Below, in pieces: positions 1,025-63,651 of a DNA stretch of 64,000 bases. Location: the NCBI GenBank assembly GCA_035445085.1, contig DAOMQA010000001.1, forward strand, positions 118,374-182,373. Reading direction: 5' to 3'. Position 1 is the first letter of the stretch. Every line of letters starts with the position of its first letter. The translations under genes were made by a program, and so were the position numbers. The notes below the pieces were generated by a model that did not search any database, was not told the origin of the DNA, and saw only the letters and a list, made by a program, of their open reading frames with translations. Source of the DNA: Candidatus Kapaibacterium sp. GTDB taxonomy: Bacteria; Bacteroidota; Ignavibacteria; Kapaibacteriales; UBA2268.

Positions 1025-1510
1025 ATGGAAAAAATAGCAATATATCCCGGTACATTCGACCCAATAACATTAGGTCATATCGACGTAATAGAAAGAGCAT
1101 CAAAGATATTTGATAAGATAGTAGTAGTCATAGCACGTAACTCAAAGAAAATAACACTATTTGATGAAAATGAACGCTTTGATATGGTATCAAATTCTAT
1201 TAGCCATCTATTAAATGTTCATACTTTATTGCATACAAAATTAACTGTAGAATCTGCTATTGAGTCTAATGCTATCGCAATAATTAGAGGTGTGCGAGCC
1301 GTGTCTGATTTTGAATTTGAGTTTCAACTCGCACTTATGAACAGAAAGTTAGCACCCGATATCCATACAATTTTGATGATGCCACATGAAAAATATACCT
1401 ATTTAAATTCCTCTATAGTTAGAGAATTAGCACGTTATGGGCAAGATATTTCTGAGTTTGTCCCTAAATATGTGGCGCAGAAATTGATAGCTAAATTTAA
1501 TGAAATATAA
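1025..1510 (+). CDS. coaD: phosphopantetheine adenylyltransferase
   Basis: N-terminal IAIYPGTFDPITLGHIDVIERA (the T/HxGH nucleotidyltransferase motif). Size is 161 aa. Confidence 0.9.
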   Translation: MEKIAIYPGTFDPITLGHIDVIERASKIFDKIVVVIARNSKKITLFDENERFDMVSNSISHLLNVHTLLHTKLTVESAIESNAIAIIRGVRAVSDFEFEFQLALMNRKLAPDIHTILMMPHEKYTYLNSSIVRELARYGQDISEFVPKYVAQKLIAKFNEI

Positions 1511-1526: not shown

Positions 1527-2531
1527 ATGAATGCAGTAAAATTAGCACTTGTAGGAGTAGGAGAAGTAGCACAAAATTTCCACCTACCTATATACTCAAA
1601 ACTAAACAACGTATCATTAGAAGGTGTTTATGATAAAATTACATCTAAAGCGAGAGCTATCGCTGACAAGTATGAAATAAGAAATGTTTATTCAAGTTTT
1701 GAAGACTTATTGAAAAATGAAGAAATATCAACTATTGATATATGCACTAGCACCGATAAACATTTTGAATATGCAATACAAGCAATTGAAAATAATAAAA
1801 ATGTCATTATTGAGAAGCCAATCGCAAAGAACTATCAAGAAGCAAAATTGATACTAGAAGCATCAGAAAAGTATGGTACCAAAGTTATGGTTGCGAGTAA
1901 CCATAGATTTAGATATGATGCTATGGTATTGAAAAATTTTGTTCAGACTGGTGAATTAGGAGATATTTATTATATTAGAGGAACGTGGAACCAGCATAGA
2001 TACGGCAATGAGTGGCGTCAGCAAAAGGAAACCTCTGGTGGTGGTGTTTTAATGGACTTAGGTGTATCGTTAATCGATTCGCTACTGTGGATAAGTAACT
2101 TCCCACAAGTAATTTCAGCAAGTGCATCTATGTTCAAGCAAAATACAAGCGAAGTAGAGGATATTTGTATAGCCAACATTAAGTTTGACAATGGCATGAT
2201 GGTGAACTTAGAAATTAGTTGGTCCTTATTAAGCGTTCATAATACATTCGGCTTTGATATATATGGTAGTAATGGCGTTGCTAAAATTAATCCTTTACAA
2301 TTGTTCAAAAATGATGGTAATATTTTAACACCGATTACATCAATTGATACTCTTTCCAATATTGCAACACATAAGAAGTCGTTTGAAAGTCAGTTAAAAC
2401 ATTTCATCAATGGTATTTTAGGATTGCATCCTATTATTTCGTCTCCATATGAGGCAATACAAACAATGAAGATAATAGATATGCTATACCGTTCGGCAAG
2501 CGAAAATAAGCCAATCTTGAGCAATGAATAA
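1527..2531 (+). CDS. Gfo/Idh/MocA family oxidoreductase
   Basis: N-terminal Rossmann motif LALVGVGEVAQNFHLP, EKP motif and overall family architecture. Confidence 0.75.
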   Translation: MNAVKLALVGVGEVAQNFHLPIYSKLNNVSLEGVYDKITSKARAIADKYEIRNVYSSFEDLLKNEEISTIDICTSTDKHFEYAIQAIENNKNVIIEKPIAKNYQEAKLILEASEKYGTKVMVASNHRFRYDAMVLKNFVQTGELGDIYYIRGTWNQHRYGNEWRQQKETSGGGVLMDLGVSLIDSLLWISNFPQVISASASMFKQNTSEVEDICIANIKFDNGMMVNLEISWSLLSVHNTFGFDIYGSNGVAKINPLQLFKNDGNILTPITSIDTLSNIATHKKSFESQLKHFINGILGLHPIISSPYEAIQTMKIIDMLYRSASENKPILSNE

Positions 2532-2647
2532 TTGTTAAAAATAGCACTATTCCCATTGAGGGATATATTAAACTTAATGATTTCTCAAGTAATAAAATAT
2601 ATACCTTGAGTAGTTTTGAACAAAGCATAATTTAAATATAGGGCGAC

Positions 2648-3943
2648 TTGATAACTAAGCATAAAATAGTAAATGGCGATAGCCGGCTGATGTCCGAAGT
2701 GTCCGACAATTCAGTTCATTTGGCTATTACTTCTCCACCCTATTGGCAGTTGAAGGACTATGGAAACGACCATCAAATTGGCTTCCACGATAGTTATGAA
2801 AATTATATCAACAACCTGAATTTGGTTTGGAAAGAGTGTTACCGTACTCTACATAACGGTTGTAGGCTGTGCGTAAACATTGGCGACCAATTTGCACGTG
2901 CGGTTTATTATGGTCGCTATAAAGTTATTCCTATACGTGAGGAAATAATTAAGTTCTGTGAGAACATTGGCTTTGACTATATGGGCGCTACCATTTGGCA
3001 AAAAATTACCACCTCTAATACTACAGGGGGAGGTGTTCAAATGGGTTCGTATCCATATCCAAGAAATGGGATTTTGAAATTGGACTATGAATTTATTCTT
3101 GTTTTCAAAAAATTAGGTAACGCACCAAAACCCACAAGAGAACAGAAAGAACTTTCAAAAATGACCGCAGAAGAATGGAATACATTTTTTGCAGGTCATT
3201 GGAATTTTGCGGGTGCAAGGCAGAGCGGGCATATTGCAATGTTTCCCGAAGAATTACCGAGGCGTTTAATTAAAATGTTTTCTTTTGTGGGGGAAACAGT
3301 CCTCGACCCATTCGCTGGAAGCGGAACAACTGCGCTAGCTGCACGTAACTTGGACCGCAATTCGATTGGGTATGAAATCAACCCGGAATTTATCCCACTT
3401 ATTAAAATGAAATTGGAAGTTCAGCAAAAAGATTTGAATGGAACAAGCTATGAGTTTGTAGAACAAAAGCCCATCAAAACTGACTTTGATAAAAAAATCA
3501 AGGAGCAACCTTATATATTTAAAGACCCCCATACACTTAACAAAAAAATTGACGTAAAGAAGTTGCAATTTGGCTCTAAGATTGACAAAGATAGCCCAAG
3601 TGAGCGGGAAGAATTGTTTACTGTTAAAGAAGTGATTAGTGTTGGGAAAATTCGTTTAAGCAATGATTTAATTATAAAACTTATTGGTATAAAAGAAGAC
3701 CCCGTTGCCAATAGCAGAGCAATAAAATTTATCATTGATAAAACGAAGGGGAAACGGGTTTTCATGAAATATGACAAGGTCAAACATGATAGCGAAAATA
3801 ATTTACTATGCTATCTTTATCTAGCAAACAAAACATTTATCAATGCTCATCTAATTAAAAATGGTTTGGCACAGGTAGACAGCGATACGGATTTTAAATA
3901 CAAGGAGAAATTTCTAAACTTTTTGCAGGAACACAATGGATAA
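2648..3943 (+). CDS. beta-class DNA amino-methyltransferase (N4-cytosine or N6-adenine) with C-terminal SNase-like domain
   Basis: Motif IV SPPY (aa ~29) precedes motif I DPFAGSGTT (aa ~222), which is the beta-class order. The C-terminal ~150 aa resemble the thermonuclease fold (…NLLCYLYLANKTFINAHLIKNGLAQVD). The start is TTG at 2648; an alternative ATG lies at 2690. GC content is higher than the surrounding genome. Confidence 0.8.
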   Translation: MITKHKIVNGDSRLMSEVSDNSVHLAITSPPYWQLKDYGNDHQIGFHDSYENYINNLNLVWKECYRTLHNGCRLCVNIGDQFARAVYYGRYKVIPIREEIIKFCENIGFDYMGATIWQKITTSNTTGGGVQMGSYPYPRNGILKLDYEFILVFKKLGNAPKPTREQKELSKMTAEEWNTFFAGHWNFAGARQSGHIAMFPEELPRRLIKMFSFVGETVLDPFAGSGTTALAARNLDRNSIGYEINPEFIPLIKMKLEVQQKDLNGTSYEFVEQKPIKTDFDKKIKEQPYIFKDPHTLNKKIDVKKLQFGSKIDKDSPSEREELFTVKEVISVGKIRLSNDLIIKLIGIKEDPVANSRAIKFIIDKTKGKRVFMKYDKVKHDSENNLLCYLYLANKTFINAHLIKNGLAQVDSDTDFKYKEKFLNFLQEHNG

Positions 3944-4640
3944 AGATTATATATCAAGCTCAGACGGCTACAATCTAAAATTTAAGCGGGAAACACTTTT
4001 AAATTACGGGATGAATCGTTGGGGATTAAATAAAGCTTATAGTGTTGGCGCAACTTCCGAGTTAATTAGAGCTTGCGCACCTACAACATATGATGAATGG
4101 GAGCAGTTTTATTTTACGCAGGCAAAGCAGAAGAAAAAAGATGGGCTTCAGATTACAAGGGAATATATTACAAATCTTGGGCAAACGCTTTACGTCAAGC
4201 TTTCGGAAGTTGTTCAATATGAACTTGAACAAATAACAGATGAAGAATGTATTGACTACGCTTACAACTTAGTTTTAAATCGGACCTATGAAGGTTACCG
4301 CACAGAAATTGAGACTATTTATGGACAACTTGAAGATGCTATTGGTTATAAAATCGAGCCTGCACCTGATAATTGGGACAGAACATACAGTGTTGATTTT
4401 TTTGTAAAAATCAACACCAAAAGCATTGGTATCCAGATAAAGCCAATTACATCAGGACAGTCACTTAACCACTACCAATGGGCTGAAATACACCGTAAAA
4501 ATCACGAAAATTTTGAAAAAGAATTTGGCGGTAAAGTGTTTTTCGTATTTTCTAACAAGAGTTCAAGCGGGAACAAGAAAATCTACAACATAGAAGTAAT
4601 TGAGCAAATTCGAAATGAAGTACAACGATTGTTGCAATAG
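3936..4640 (+). CDS. putative Type II restriction endonuclease (partner of the upstream methyltransferase)
   Basis: The ATG overlaps the methyltransferase stop by 8 nt (translational coupling). PD-(D/E)XK-like motif SVDFF...IGIQIKP. Same elevated GC as the methyltransferase gene. No recognisable family. Confidence 0.45.
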   Translation: MDKDYISSSDGYNLKFKRETLLNYGMNRWGLNKAYSVGATSELIRACAPTTYDEWEQFYFTQAKQKKKDGLQITREYITNLGQTLYVKLSEVVQYELEQITDEECIDYAYNLVLNRTYEGYRTEIETIYGQLEDAIGYKIEPAPDNWDRTYSVDFFVKINTKSIGIQIKPITSGQSLNHYQWAEIHRKNHENFEKEFGGKVFFVFSNKSSSGNKKIYNIEVIEQIRNEVQRLLQ

Positions 4641-4663: not shown

Positions 4664-5083
4664 CTAAGGGTATAGTTTTTTTAAATGAGTTATGGCAAGC
4701 TCTAACATAATTTTGAGAATATCTAAGTTAATGTCTTCGATTTTTTTAATATATAAACAAGATTTCCCCATTTTATATTTGCCAATTTGAGCTAAATATT
4801 CTTCAAATTTATCGAATCCAGACATCATATATATTGTAATATTTTGCTTCCTTGGCGCTATTCCTATATAGAACCAATCTCCTTCCCTACCAGACTCGTA
4901 TTTGTATGTATAATCACCAAAGCCTATTATCGATTCACCCCACATTTTAGGCTCGCACTTAGATACATCTTTCATTATATCAATCAATAAATTACAATCT
5001 TCTATTTTCTTACTGTCCCCTAAAGAATCAATGTATTGCGCTACATCACGATTAGTTTTTATAGTTTTATTATCAGCTTTCAT
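4664..5083 (-). CDS. DUF1801 (YdhG-like) domain protein
   Basis: 139-aa protein whose pattern (…DWFYIGIAPRKQNITIYMMSG…) is typical of the DUF1801 family. Confidence 0.55.
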   Translation of the reverse strand: MKADNKTIKTNRDVAQYIDSLGDSKKIEDCNLLIDIMKDVSKCEPKMWGESIIGFGDYTYKYESGREGDWFYIGIAPRKQNITIYMMSGFDKFEEYLAQIGKYKMGKSCLYIKKIEDINLDILKIMLELAITHLKKLYP

Positions 5084-61666: not shown

Positions 61667-62182
61667 ATGAAAGGTTATATGTACATATTGGAATGTAGCA
61701 ATGGTAGTTATTATACCGGAAGTACCATTGATTTACAACGGCGTTTTGAACAACATCAAAATGGCGAAGGGGCTAATCATACCAAAAAGTATTTGCCAGT
61801 TAAATTAGTCTATTACGAAGAATTTCAACGAATAGATGAAGCATTTAATCGCGAGAAACAAGTACAAGGCTGGAGTAGAAAAAAGAAAGAAGCACTGATT
61901 AATGGAACATCGGAATTATTACCAAAATTAGCTATTGCGTATCGAGACAAAAACGGTGGTTTCGAGGACCTCAACCACCAGCGAGAACCAATGTCGCCTG
62001 AGGTTCTCGAAGGCAAGGCTATCGAAGGCAAGGCTATCGAAGGCGAAAACGGTGGTTTCGAGGACCTCAACCACCGGACAGACGAGAGCCTCAACCACCA
62101 ACACGAGCCGCCGACGCCTGAGGTTCTCGAAGGCAAGGCTATCGAAGGCGAAGTAACAACAATTAAAAAGAATACACAATGA
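61667..62182 (+). CDS. GIY-YIG nuclease family protein with repeat-derived C-terminal extension
   Basis: N-terminal ~95 aa (GYMYILECSNGSYYTGSTIDLQRRFEQH…) match the small GIY-YIG family. The last ~75 aa are encoded by GC-rich repeat units. Its TGA stop overlaps the hsdS ATG (ATGA). Confidence 0.7.
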   Translation: MKGYMYILECSNGSYYTGSTIDLQRRFEQHQNGEGANHTKKYLPVKLVYYEEFQRIDEAFNREKQVQGWSRKKKEALINGTSELLPKLAIAYRDKNGGFEDLNHQREPMSPEVLEGKAIEGKAIEGENGGFEDLNHRTDESLNHQHEPPTPEVLEGKAIEGEVTTIKKNTQ

Positions 62183-62400
62183 ACAATATACAAAAATTAC
62201 TGGGGGCTGAGGTTCTCGAAGGCAAAAACGGTGGTTTCGAGAACCTCAACCACCGGAAGCAAGACATCGACGAGGACCTCAACCACCAGCGAGAACCAAT
62301 GTCGCCTGAGGTTCTCGAAGGCGAGGTTCTCGAAGGCGAGGTTCTCGAAGGCGAGGTTCTCGAAGGCAAGGCTATCGAAGGCAAGGCTATCGAAGCCCCA
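61955..62400 (+). repeat. GC-rich in-frame repeat block (25-nt palindromic units plus 15-nt tandem units)
   Basis: GGTGGTTTCGAG(G/A)ACCTCAACCACC at 61955, 62051, 62230, with partial copies at 62086 and 62272. Tandem 15-nt units gaggttctcgaaggc/aaggctatcgaaggc at 62000-62044 and 62308-62397. About 55% GC against ~30% background. Confidence 0.85.
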
Positions 62401-63651
62401 AATAACGTGCAATGGAAAACGCTGGGGGAAGTGGTTTCAACAGTTACGGCATCAACAAAATTAAAAAAAGAAGCTTATCGGGAAAAAGGTAAAATTCCAA
62501 TTATTGACCAAGGAATTGAATTTATTGCTGGTTATACTGATGGTTTGTTAACTACAGTTCAGAAAGGAGAATATGTTATTTTTGGTGACCATTCAGAGCA
62601 TATTAAATATGTTGATTTCGAATTCATTCAGGGAGCTGATGGATTGAAAATATTAAAATCAAATTCAAATTCAAATGAAACAAAGTATATCTATTATGCA
62701 TTTCTAAATTTCTATCGAAAAGAATTAAATTATAAACGTCATTGGTCAACAGCAAAAGAAATAAAAATCCCCATCCCCCCGATCGCCGTCCAACAAGAAA
62801 TTGTACGCATATTGGATAAATTTACAGAGCTAACAGCGGAGCTAACAGCGGAGCTAACAGCGGAGCTAACAGCCAGAAAAAAACAGTATCAGTATTATCG
62901 TGAGAAATTATTGTCGCCTGAGGTTCTCGAAGGCAAAAACGGTGGTTTCGAGAGCCTCAACCACCGGAAGCAAGACGAGAACCTCAACCACCAGCACAAG
63001 ACGCCGACGCCTGAGGTTCTCGAAGGCGAGGCTCTCGAAGGCGAGGTTCTCGAAGCCCAAAATAAGGTACAATGGAAAACGCTGGGAGAGGTGGCTTTAC
63101 AAACTTCAAATATTCGTTGGCGTGATACAGAAAATTCATATAGATATATTGACCTAACTTCTGTTTGTCGAGAAACAAATACAATTATTGAGACAACCGA
63201 AATTTCTAAAGAAAATGCACCAAGTAGAGCACAAAAAATAGTACTTAAAAATGATGTAATTTTCGCAACAACAAGACCTACACAAATGAGATTATGTTTA
63301 ATCGATGATGAATATTCTGGACAAATCGCAAGTACAGGTTATTGCGTTTTGAGACCTAAAAAAGAAGAAGTTTTATCAAAATGGATATATTTTAATCTAA
63401 CCAAATCAGATTTTAGAAGCTATCTTGAAGAAAATCAAAGTGGTTCTGCGTATCCAGCTATTTCAGATTCAAAACTTAAAGAATTCAAAATCCCCATCCC
63501 TCCCCTTGCAGAGCAAGAACGCATTGTGCGGATATTGGATAAATTTGATACCTTAGTTAATTCCATCAGCGAGGGTTTGCCTAAGGAGATAGAGCTAAGG
63601 CAAAAGCAGTATGAATATTATCGGGATAAATTATTAAATTTTAATGCTTAA
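62179..63651 (+). CDS. hsdS: Type I restriction-modification specificity subunit (HsdS), two target-recognition domains
   Basis: Two halves, each with NxVQWKTLGEV…(target-recognition domain)…IPIPP(I/L)A(V/E)Q(Q/E)(E/R)IVRILDKF…KQY(Q/E)YYR(E/D)KLL. No hsdM or hsdR within the window. Confidence 0.85.
   Translation: MNNIQKLLGAEVLEGKNGGFENLNHRKQDIDEDLNHQREPMSPEVLEGEVLEGEVLEGEVLEGKAIEGKAIEAPNNVQWKTLGEVVSTVTASTKLKKEAYREKGKIPIIDQGIEFIAGYTDGLLTTVQKGEYVIFGDHSEHIKYVDFEFIQGADGLKILKSNSNSNETKYIYYAFLNFYRKELNYKRHWSTAKEIKIPIPPIAVQQEIVRILDKFTELTAELTAELTAELTARKKQYQYYREKLLSPEVLEGKNGGFESLNHRKQDENLNHQHKTPTPEVLEGEALEGEVLEAQNKVQWKTLGEVALQTSNIRWRDTENSYRYIDLTSVCRETNTIIETTEISKENAPSRAQKIVLKNDVIFATTRPTQMRLCLIDDEYSGQIASTGYCVLRPKKEEVLSKWIYFNLTKSDFRSYLEENQSGSAYPAISDSKLKEFKIPIPPLAEQERIVRILDKFDTLVNSISEGLPKEIELRQKQYEYYRDKLLNFNA
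62827..62874 (+). repeat. 12-nt tandem repeat x4 (gagctaacagcg) encoding ELTA/TAEL in the HsdS central conserved region
   Basis: Three perfect units plus one terminal variant (…cagcc). The protein reads FTELTAELTAELTAELTARKK. Confidence 0.9.
62915..63060 (+). repeat. second copy of the GC-rich repeat block, inserted between the HsdS central region and TRD2
   Basis: Palindromic unit at 62941-62965, partial at 62976-62991, and gaggttctcgaaggc-type 15-mers. Confidence 0.85.

Follow-up and report, generated by a model that had tools for sequence, protein, structure and literature searches.

A probable MjaI/MthZI-kind restriction-modification cassette in a Kapabacteria genome, with a degenerate staphylococcal-nuclease-fold domain on its methyltransferase

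Two overlapping genes in a 64,000-nucleotide stretch of Kapabacteria DNA (the window, meaning the whole stretch that was analysed) very probably constitute a Type IIP restriction-modification cassette of the MjaI/MthZI kind, still intact, which arrived horizontally as a mobile unit. The pair consists of an amino-methyltransferase (M) and a restriction endonuclease (R), and it is a known kind of system, an ordinary defence cassette apart from a dead nuclease-like domain on the methylase. Its significance lies mainly in annotation, as the impression of an orphan endonuclease is corrected and a probable specificity (CTAG, with N4-methylcytosine, m4C) is assigned, which could aid methylome-based binning or genetic studies in Kapabacteria and FCB-group bacteria. 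The cassette is highly mobile and very conserved, being common to several FCB-group lineages (Bacteroidota, Ignavibacteria, Rhodothermia and Chloroherpetonaceae), and the degenerate staphylococcal nuclease (SNase)-fold domain is the one feature that might merit experimental attention.

The two genes and their products

M matched Pfam N6_N4_Mtase (PF01555; E = 7e-42) and, over its full length, PADLOC MTase_II (594 bits). The FAGSG residues (222-226) lie C-terminal to SPPY (29-32), and because motif IV precedes motif I in this way M belongs to the beta class. Over residues 1-256, the interval between motifs IV and I included, M shares 33% identity with M.MthZI of plasmid pFZ1 (E = 4e-36), and it is 40% identical to a haloarchaeal plasmid methylase. 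The NCBI gene call for M is 417 amino acids long (P0122), but the TTG start is preferred here because the N-terminal 14 residues are kept in full-length homologues.

R matched Pfam RE_MjaI (PF09568) with E = 1e-37 and 130 bits (cut-off 22.7), across profile positions 2-161 of 164, and PADLOC REase_II at 1.8e-35, and its exact sequence is already named "MjaI family restriction endonuclease" at NCBI; the opinion of an earlier, sequence-only reading of this DNA, that the endonuclease had no obvious family resemblance, does not hold. Comparison of R with R.MthZI of pFZ1 by hhalign gave a probability of 98.5% at about 20% identity, a similarity detectable at the profile level only, while R found no match among PDB sequences, nor by tblastn among plasmid records, although pFZ1 carries a member of the family. 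Specificity may shift at such levels of identity to the MthZI enzymes (~20% for R, 33% for M).

In an alignment of 32 R family sequences D154 was invariant, E124 was present in at least 90%, and Q167 and K169 were the majority residues, and the VD…QIK motif that the sequence-only reading had called PD-(D/E)XK-like (VD being residues 153-154 and QIK 167-169) turns out to be the catalytic motif that the family conserves. The AlphaFold model of R (pLDDT 91.4) has PD-(D/E)XK topology with an alpha-beta-beta-beta-alpha-beta core (helix 102-136, strands 140-142, 155-159 and 162-171, helix 179-197, strand 201-208). Its top Foldseek matches were Hjc resolvases, bunyavirus cap-snatching endonucleases and the R2 endonuclease, and nucleases of the PD-(D/E)XK superfamily dominate these matches. 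The MjaI family has previously been placed in this superfamily (PMC2441816, PMC3424549).

The same reading had proposed a Type II pair made up of a beta-class amino-methyltransferase (SPPY … DPFAGSGTT) and a 234-amino-acid protein overlapping it by 8 nt, set between coaD/oxidoreductase genes and a DUF1801 gene. The layout and the flanks are as it described them (Table 1), the class follows from the motif order and the Pfam match, and the proposal of a Type II pair is supported by the Pfam and PADLOC families of both proteins and by the PD-(D/E)XK core in the R model. The pairing of M with R is kept in seven hosts.

Table 1. Features of the cassette and its surroundings, in window coordinates
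Feature	Position	Strand	Remarks
Cytidylyltransferase-like (coaD-type) gene	1025-1510		Flank of cassette
GFO/IDH/MocA oxidoreductase gene	1527-2531		Flank of cassette
Candidate Bacteroidota-type -7 promoter element	2611-2618	+	TAGTTTTG; matches TAnnTTTG; 30 nt upstream of M start; weak
M gene	2648-3943	+	431-aa beta-class N4/N6 DNA amino-methyltransferase with C-terminal SNase-fold domain; TTG start
Methyltransferase catalytic and target-recognition region	2714-3406	+	M residues 23-253; Pfam N6_N4_Mtase
Motif IV, SPPY (catalytic)	2732-2743	+	M residues 29-32; aligns with SPPY of TTHA0409 and M.MthZI
Motif I, DPFAGSGTT (AdoMet binding)	3305-3331	+	M residues 220-228; nearly invariant among homologues
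CTAG sites inside M gene	3335-3338 and 3821-3824	.	Candidate self-sites that would need methylation
Staphylococcal-nuclease-fold (OB-fold) domain, M C-terminus	3614-3937	+	About residues 323-430; without canonical catalytic residues
M/R overlap	3936-3943	+	8 nt, end of M and R start codon (ATGGATAA)
R gene	3936-4640	+	234-aa MjaI-family Type II restriction endonuclease
Predicted PD-(D/E)XK catalytic residues	4305-4442	+	E124 4305-4307; D154 4395-4397; Q167-I-K169 4434-4442
DUF1801 gene	4664-5083	-	Flank of cassette

The overlap of M and R, which is also present in L019/L020, suggests translational coupling, in which M would probably be translated first and translation of R would follow. No ORF lies between or beside M and R in the window, and the variant of the cassette seen here lacks a controller gene of the small HTH (C-protein) type. 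In some relatives (L017/18, L023) M and R are separated by an ORF of 120/121 amino acids, and no Pfam match was found for the copy in L017. ORFs of 129-131 amino acids upstream of M in L019 and L026 were considered as parts of the cassette and rejected, as they are unrelated. The weak candidate -7 element upstream of M may be a promoter element, to judge by the pattern of Bacteroides promoters; there are 154 occurrences of TAnnTTTG in the window, where 102 +/- 10 would be expected, and the chance of one plus-strand match in the 116-nt spacer is about 0.14.

Probable CTAG specificity

M would most likely place m4C in CTAG sites of the host, and R would most likely cut unmethylated C^TAG in incoming DNA, a chemistry and activity that we infer from the characterised relatives. 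For MjaI, activity at CTAG has been proven (PMC2615612), MthZI cuts C/TAG, and M.MjaI, M.MthZI and M.BfaI are all beta-class m4C CTAG methylases (PMC11033074, PMC5867850). HVO_0794 also counts among the CTAG-specific m4C methyltransferases. From the homology to the MjaI/MthZI enzymes and from the depletion of CTAG, we regard CTAG as the likely specificity of the cassette.

Site avoidance gives indirect support. The window contains 31 CTAG sites against 171 expected (observed/expected, O/E, 0.18; a 5.5-fold depletion), and GGCC, GATC and CATG are likewise depleted, GGCC (O/E 0.12) even more so than CTAG. Across the seven cassette hosts CTAG had a geometric-mean O/E of 0.17, the lowest of the 16 four-nucleotide palindromes, with weaker depletion in hosts L025 (O/E 0.65) and L022 (0.41). 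Host L019 has a single CTAG against 15 expected, with GATC, GGCC and CATG near expectation. CTAG avoidance was, however, also seen in loci with no known cassette (L008, L015/16 and L006), and it is common in bacteria.

The reading that survives best beside CTAG is that this is a genuine MjaI-family system which recognises some other site, the bacterial clade having diverged from the archaeal prototypes. The low identity of both proteins to the MthZI enzymes, the stronger depletion of GGCC in the window and the occurrence of CTAG depletion irrespective of the cassette would all fit with this, but the characterised members named in the literature consulted (MjaI and MthZI, with M.BfaI on the methylase side) are without exception CTAG enzymes, no cassette host has a CTAG O/E above 0.65 while the mean across the seven is the lowest of any palindrome, and the other depleted palindromes are at expectation in L019, and so we consider a different site unlikely.

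Acquisition and integrity of the cassette

The GC content of M is 37.0% and that of R 35.7%, compared to 32.2% for the whole window and 28-33% for the flanking genes. The figure of 40-45% against flanks of ~30% given by the sequence-only reading was overstated; 39-41% was reached only by 400-nt windows inside M. Third-position GC (GC3) was 0.36 for M and 0.32 for R against a mean of 0.248 (sd 0.047) for the ORFs of the window (z = 2.4 and 1.6 respectively), and GC3 is the clearer compositional signal of the two.

Homologues of R and M that are 80-88% identical were found in Hydrotalea, Ignavibacteria, Rhodothermia, Chloroherpetonaceae, Bacteroidales and Saprospiraceae (M is 84% identical in Hydrotalea flava, and R is 84-86% identical to many homologues of the same length), and the unit of M, with its SNase-fold domain, and R occurs in seven unrelated contexts, two of which have transposases or an integrase next to it. 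The proposed horizontal acquisition is supported by these cross-phylum homologues, by the unrelated contexts and by the raised GC3, and the cassette moves among FCB-group bacteria and was very probably acquired in this way by the Kapabacteria genome. An earlier report describes PF09568 passing horizontally between FCB bacteria and Methanothermobacter (PMC3424549).

A search for an empty site, carried out in the genome and metagenome collections with the oxidoreductase as query, found nearest relatives of 47-64% identity (64% at best, and 54% in the genome collection) in which the downstream region was not syntenic; no relative with an empty site was found and no insertion junction could be defined. 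A search around the cassette for terminators likewise gave nothing convincing. We consider it improbable that the pair is ancestral to the lineage. M homologues of 86% identity in other Kapaibacterium MAGs (P0198, P0229), the modest size of the GC shift, the lack of an adjoining integrase or other mobile-element genes in the window and the lack of convincing direct or inverted repeats around the cassette are what might be expected of an ancestral pair; against this, M and R are equally similar to proteins from other phyla while the housekeeping gene beside them is far less similar to Kapaibacteria-related sequences, different genes lie downstream of the oxidoreductase in the relatives L006, L007 and L011, other hosts carry the cassette at unrelated sites, and transfer of the R family has the precedent cited above.

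Slightly less probable again is that the acquired cassette is decaying, with R inactive and M left as a de facto orphan methyltransferase. Members of the family do decay, as loci L026-L028 retain only an ORF for the SNase-like domain together with 28 codons of R, the two CTAG sites within M are unmutated, and M of the window carries Gly at a position where at least 90% of homologues have Glu (consensus E333). However, R is full length and free of frameshifts, with E124, D154, Q167 and K169 intact and with its many close homologues of equal length, the M-R overlap is preserved, and CTAG is strongly depleted.

The SNase-fold domain of M and comparison with known systems

The C-terminal domain of M, which the sequence-only reading had overlooked, matched Pfam SNase (PF00565) with E = 1.4e-6 and 29.1 bits (cut-off 21). 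The AlphaFold model of M has a pLDDT of 85-90 across the domain, and Foldseek matched it to SNase structures with E = 4e-7, TM 0.62/0.74 and an rmsd of 2.2 A. The domain is very strongly conserved among M homologues, more so than the linker, and some of these homologues are named "thermonuclease family protein" at NCBI. When the domain alone served as query, most matches were fragments from the same methylase family, and no independent family emerged.

Active SNase has the Ca2+ ligands D21, D40 and T41 and the catalytic residues R35, E43 and R87. As hhalign of the M domain against SNase gave an alignment limited to the C-terminal 43 columns, the N-terminal half was placed by manual alignment, using the known SNase sequence and the strands of the model. 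The equivalent of D21 in M is Gly and that of R87 is Asn, and the positions matching D40/T41/E43 read K-E-D-P-V and vary in homologues (KENP, KQDL, KSLP, KADN and others); because these equivalents are replaced or variable, the canonical Ca2+ site and the general base are missing. That the domain is nevertheless a working nuclease, and M a bifunctional methylase-nuclease, is scarcely credible, since the above-threshold Pfam match, the confident structural match, the thermonuclease names and the strong conservation are outweighed by the Asn at R87, the Gly at D21 and the variable D40/T41/E43 region.

By analogy with CcrM of Caulobacter crescentus, a beta-class enzyme with an added C-terminal domain which serves as a functional precedent, the SNase-fold domain is probably an accessory module for DNA binding. 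The C-terminal domain of CcrM binds DNA non-specifically and holds the non-target strand (PMC6787082, PMC10406627), and the SNase-fold domain of M could do the same. CcrM is, however, an orphan m6A GANTC enzyme whose C-terminal domain does not have the SNase fold, and its similarity to M is confined to the catalytic core (E = 4e-6). Alternatively, the domain could bind the promoter of the cassette, so that M would time R expression where the intervening ORF is absent. We suggest only tentatively that a dead SNase-fold domain, fused to M throughout the bacterial clade, represents an undescribed functional module.

Among solved structures, TTHA0409 (M.TthA0409) of Thermus thermophilus HB8 (PDB 2zie/2zif/2zig), a dimeric beta-class enzyme (PMC7544214), comes closest to the catalytic part of M. 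Residues 5-256 of M match it with E = 6e-56 (against PDB 2zie), with SPPY and FAG(S/T)GTT in common, but TTHA0409 has 297 amino acids and, unlike M, no SNase-like domain; a literature search for its specificity found none reported.

As a system, the cassette resembles MthZI of Methanothermobacter plasmid pFZ1 (NC_001337) and MjaI of Methanocaldococcus jannaschii (MJ0984/MJ0985), which likewise combine a beta-class SPPY methyltransferase with a PF09568 PD-(D/E)XK endonuclease, M.MthZI on pFZ1 being paired with an "MjaI family" enzyme. The pFZ1 genes are convergent, whereas those of the cassette are co-directional and overlap, and the archaeal methylases have 303-364 amino acids with no extra domain reported (PMC5867850), compared to the 431 of M with its SNase-fold domain. 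A bacterial (Bacteroidota) CTAG system, to which the cassette is likened by description, is BfaI of Bacteroides fragilis (M.BfaI, GenBank ADQ20483), the methylase of which belongs to the beta class, forms m4C and is a homologue of M.MthZI and M.MjaI (PMC5867850), and the CTAG site with m4C protection of the MthZI and MjaI systems is likely to be common to the cassette described here.

The methyltransferase and endonuclease genes

Both open reading frames of the restriction-modification pair proposed in a reading made from the sequence alone were found as described (see table), the gene for the 234-aa endonuclease (R) sharing 8 nt with that of the methyltransferase (M), and annotation of the neighbours agreed with the position given for the pair between coaD-type and oxidoreductase genes and a DUF1801 gene. 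The M and R pair (the cassette) has no controller gene in the window. As annotated at NCBI, M is a 417-aa protein (P0122) that begins at Met15, but the 14 residues upstream (window 2648-2689), which include a GDSR motif, are conserved in full-length M homologues, and so the TTG is likely, on this conservation, to be the true start.

Features of the cassette, its flanks and a second locus in the window
Feature	Position	Strand	Remarks
Promoter candidate	2611-2618		TAnnTTTG match, weak
M, methyltransferase	2648-3943	+	431 aa, TTG start at 2648
R, endonuclease	3936-4640	+	234 aa
Cassette flanks			cytidylyltransferase-like (coaD-type) gene and GFO/IDH/MocA oxidoreductase; DUF1801 gene downstream, convergent
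GIY-YIG domain protein	61667-62182		Pfam 7.5e-19
HsdS, Type I R-M specificity subunit	62179-63651		Methylase_S 1e-36; overlaps GIY-YIG gene

R had been thought to show no obvious family resemblance, which is not the case: Pfam PF09568 (RE_MjaI) matched it with E = 1e-37 over almost the whole profile, a PADLOC Type II REase model matched at 1.8e-35, and an identical sequence at NCBI is named 'MjaI family restriction endonuclease'. A word-indexed search at E <= 0.001 yielded 1,123 proteins (the best 120 of the 1,123 being 72-86% identical), and a scan of a cluster-representative library yielded 396 representatives at the same threshold. An AlphaFold2 model of R, made from a 32-sequence alignment with relatives 26-65% identical, was confident (mean pLDDT 91.4) and showed a helical N-terminal half followed by an alpha-beta-beta-beta-alpha-beta core, with D154 (of VD, residues 153-154) at the start of the second strand and the QxK of QIK (residues 167-169) within the third. 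In the family alignment D154 was invariant, E124 was present in 90% or more of sequences and Q167-x-K169 was the majority pattern. As modelled, D154 and QxK occupy the canonical PD-(D/E)XK placement, and the predicted core topology together with this conservation upholds the motif that had been suggested for R.

In M, motif IV (SPPY, residues 29-32) precedes motif I (DPFAGSGTT, residues 220-228), which is the beta-class order; this and a Pfam N6_N4_Mtase match (7e-42) bear out the earlier assignment to the beta-class amino-methyltransferases. Among solved structures the nearest to M is TTHA0409, a beta-class enzyme from Thermus (6e-56).

A second, C-terminal Pfam match in M, above the family cut-off, was to SNase. 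Residues about 323-430 (AlphaFold pLDDT 85-90; order beta-beta-beta-alpha-beta-beta-alpha-alpha) matched SNase structures in Foldseek (E = 4e-7, TM 0.62/0.74, rmsd 2.2 A) and in the model form a staphylococcal-nuclease OB fold. The canonical SNase catalytic set was not found in this domain by alignment, the N-terminal half being aligned manually with the known SNase sequence and the strands of the M model as guides: Asn replaces the R87 equivalent, the V39-D40-T41-P42-E43 stretch is K-E-D-P-V (and is variable among homologues), and in the loop of the D21 region residues 332-333 (window 3641-3646) are Val-Gly where homologues have Pro-Glu; the D21 equivalent is Gly here, whereas 90% or more of the homologues carry Glu. 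Conservation throughout the clade is strong both for the domain and for a motif just before it, PYIFKDPHxLDKKIDVKKLQFGS. We infer that the domain is probably a non-catalytic DNA-binding accessory, for which the C-terminal non-specific DNA-binding domain of CcrM, also a beta-class enzyme, is a precedent (PMC6787082, PMC10406627). This conserved, catalytically degenerate domain is the only mildly unusual feature of the cassette, and as one PADLOC Type II methylase model spans full-length M (594 bits) the architecture is not new to curated resources.

Mobility and variants of the cassette

The GC content of 40-45% earlier ascribed to both genes was not reproduced, as M has 37.0% and R 35.7% against 32.2% for the window, and only short stretches within M reach about 41%. 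Third-codon-position GC (GC3) is the clearer signal (M 0.36 and R 0.32, compared to a mean of 0.248, sd 0.047, for 38 ORFs). Homologues sharing 80-88% identity with M and R are present in Hydrotalea (Chitinophagaceae), Bacteroidales, Saprospiraceae, Ignavibacteria, Rhodothermia and Chloroherpetonaceae, and the unit of M (with its SNase domain) and R was found in seven contexts unrelated to one another, with IS1595/DDE transposases or an integrase next to it in two. Horizontal transfer of PF09568 between FCB-group bacteria and Methanothermobacter has been noted previously (PMC3424549). Mobility of the cassette is well supported by these cross-lineage homologues, the seven contexts, the raised GC3 and this precedent, in keeping with the horizontal acquisition first proposed. 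No flanking repeats or mobile-element genes were found around the cassette in the window, and searching the adjacent oxidoreductase against metagenomes (best 64% identity) and a genome collection (best 54%) found no empty-site relative, its relatives sitting on Kapaibacterium-type contigs with different downstream genes.

In some relatives, on loci from other contigs, a third gene lies between M and R (L017/L018 5642-6004, L023 9636-10001, L022 9639-9863); it is absent from the window cassette. Its conserved 120/121-aa product, MP(I/V)N(F/Y)(S/T)QQQRQALL..., shortened to 74 aa in L022, may be a regulator; a Pfam search of the L017 protein gave no match. In one host (L022, 14403-20699) the surroundings of the cassette resemble a defence island, its neighbours being IS1595 transposase fragments, a second N6_N4 methylase and MksE/JetB/SbcC-type (Wadjet-like) genes. 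A decayed relic at L026 3880-4570 (also in L027 and L028) retains of M only the linker and SNase-like domain, as a 143-aa ORF (P0471), and of R only the first 28 codons, after which the sequence is unrelated; the remainder of R and the catalytic part of M have been deleted.

Three Logan contigs with an identical R gene, from three sequencing runs (L001, L003, L004), share an end inside M at about 2809, and two more end at about 3634 and 3756; these ends probably reflect branching of the assembly graph, since several co-resident organisms have near-identical M genes. Elsewhere in the window, the GIY-YIG and HsdS genes have GC3 values (0.40 and 0.34) among its highest; 61667-63651 looks like a second restriction system continuing past the window end, and was probably likewise acquired.

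Likely specificity and comparison with known CTAG systems

The window contains 31 CTAG sites where 171 would be expected (observed/expected, O/E, 0.18). Across all 16 four-nucleotide palindromes in the window and loci from six other cassette hosts, CTAG had the lowest geometric-mean O/E (0.17). Avoidance of CTAG is, however, widespread and extends to loci for which no cassette is known. One host locus (L019) had 1 CTAG against 15 expected, with GATC, GGCC and CATG near expectation; depletion was weaker in two others (L025, O/E 0.65; L022, 0.41). GGCC (0.12), GATC (0.29) and CATG (0.32) are also strongly depleted in the window, which suggests that the genome has, or once had, HaeIII-, MboI/DpnII- and NlaIII-type systems. 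We consider CTAG/m4C a quite probable specificity for the cassette.

M would be transcribed first and, because R begins within its last codons, synthesis of R is probably coupled to that of M and lags behind it. M would then methylate CTAG in host DNA, probably at N4 of cytosine, while unmodified CTAG in incoming DNA would be cut by R using Mg2+ at an E124/D154/Q167/K169 site, R probably acting as a homodimer by analogy with other Type IIP enzymes.

The Pfam and PADLOC matches of M and R support a Type II pair, and the cassette is a standard one of a known, named family, already annotated as such, and so a new but unremarkable member. Activity of the CTAG enzyme MjaI (Methanocaldococcus jannaschii) has been shown by experiment (PMC2615612), MthZI (Methanothermobacter) cleaves C/TAG, and the methylases M.MjaI, M.MthZI and M.BfaI (the last from Bacteroides fragilis), 303-364 aa long, belong to the beta class and form m4C in CTAG (PMC11033074, PMC5867850). 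On plasmid pFZ1 (NC_001337) the neighbour of M.MthZI bears the annotation MjaI family restriction endonuclease; M and M.MthZI share 33% identity across residues 1-256 of M (E = 4e-36), whereas the likeness of R to R.MthZI is detectable at profile level only (hhalign 98.5%, about 20% identity).
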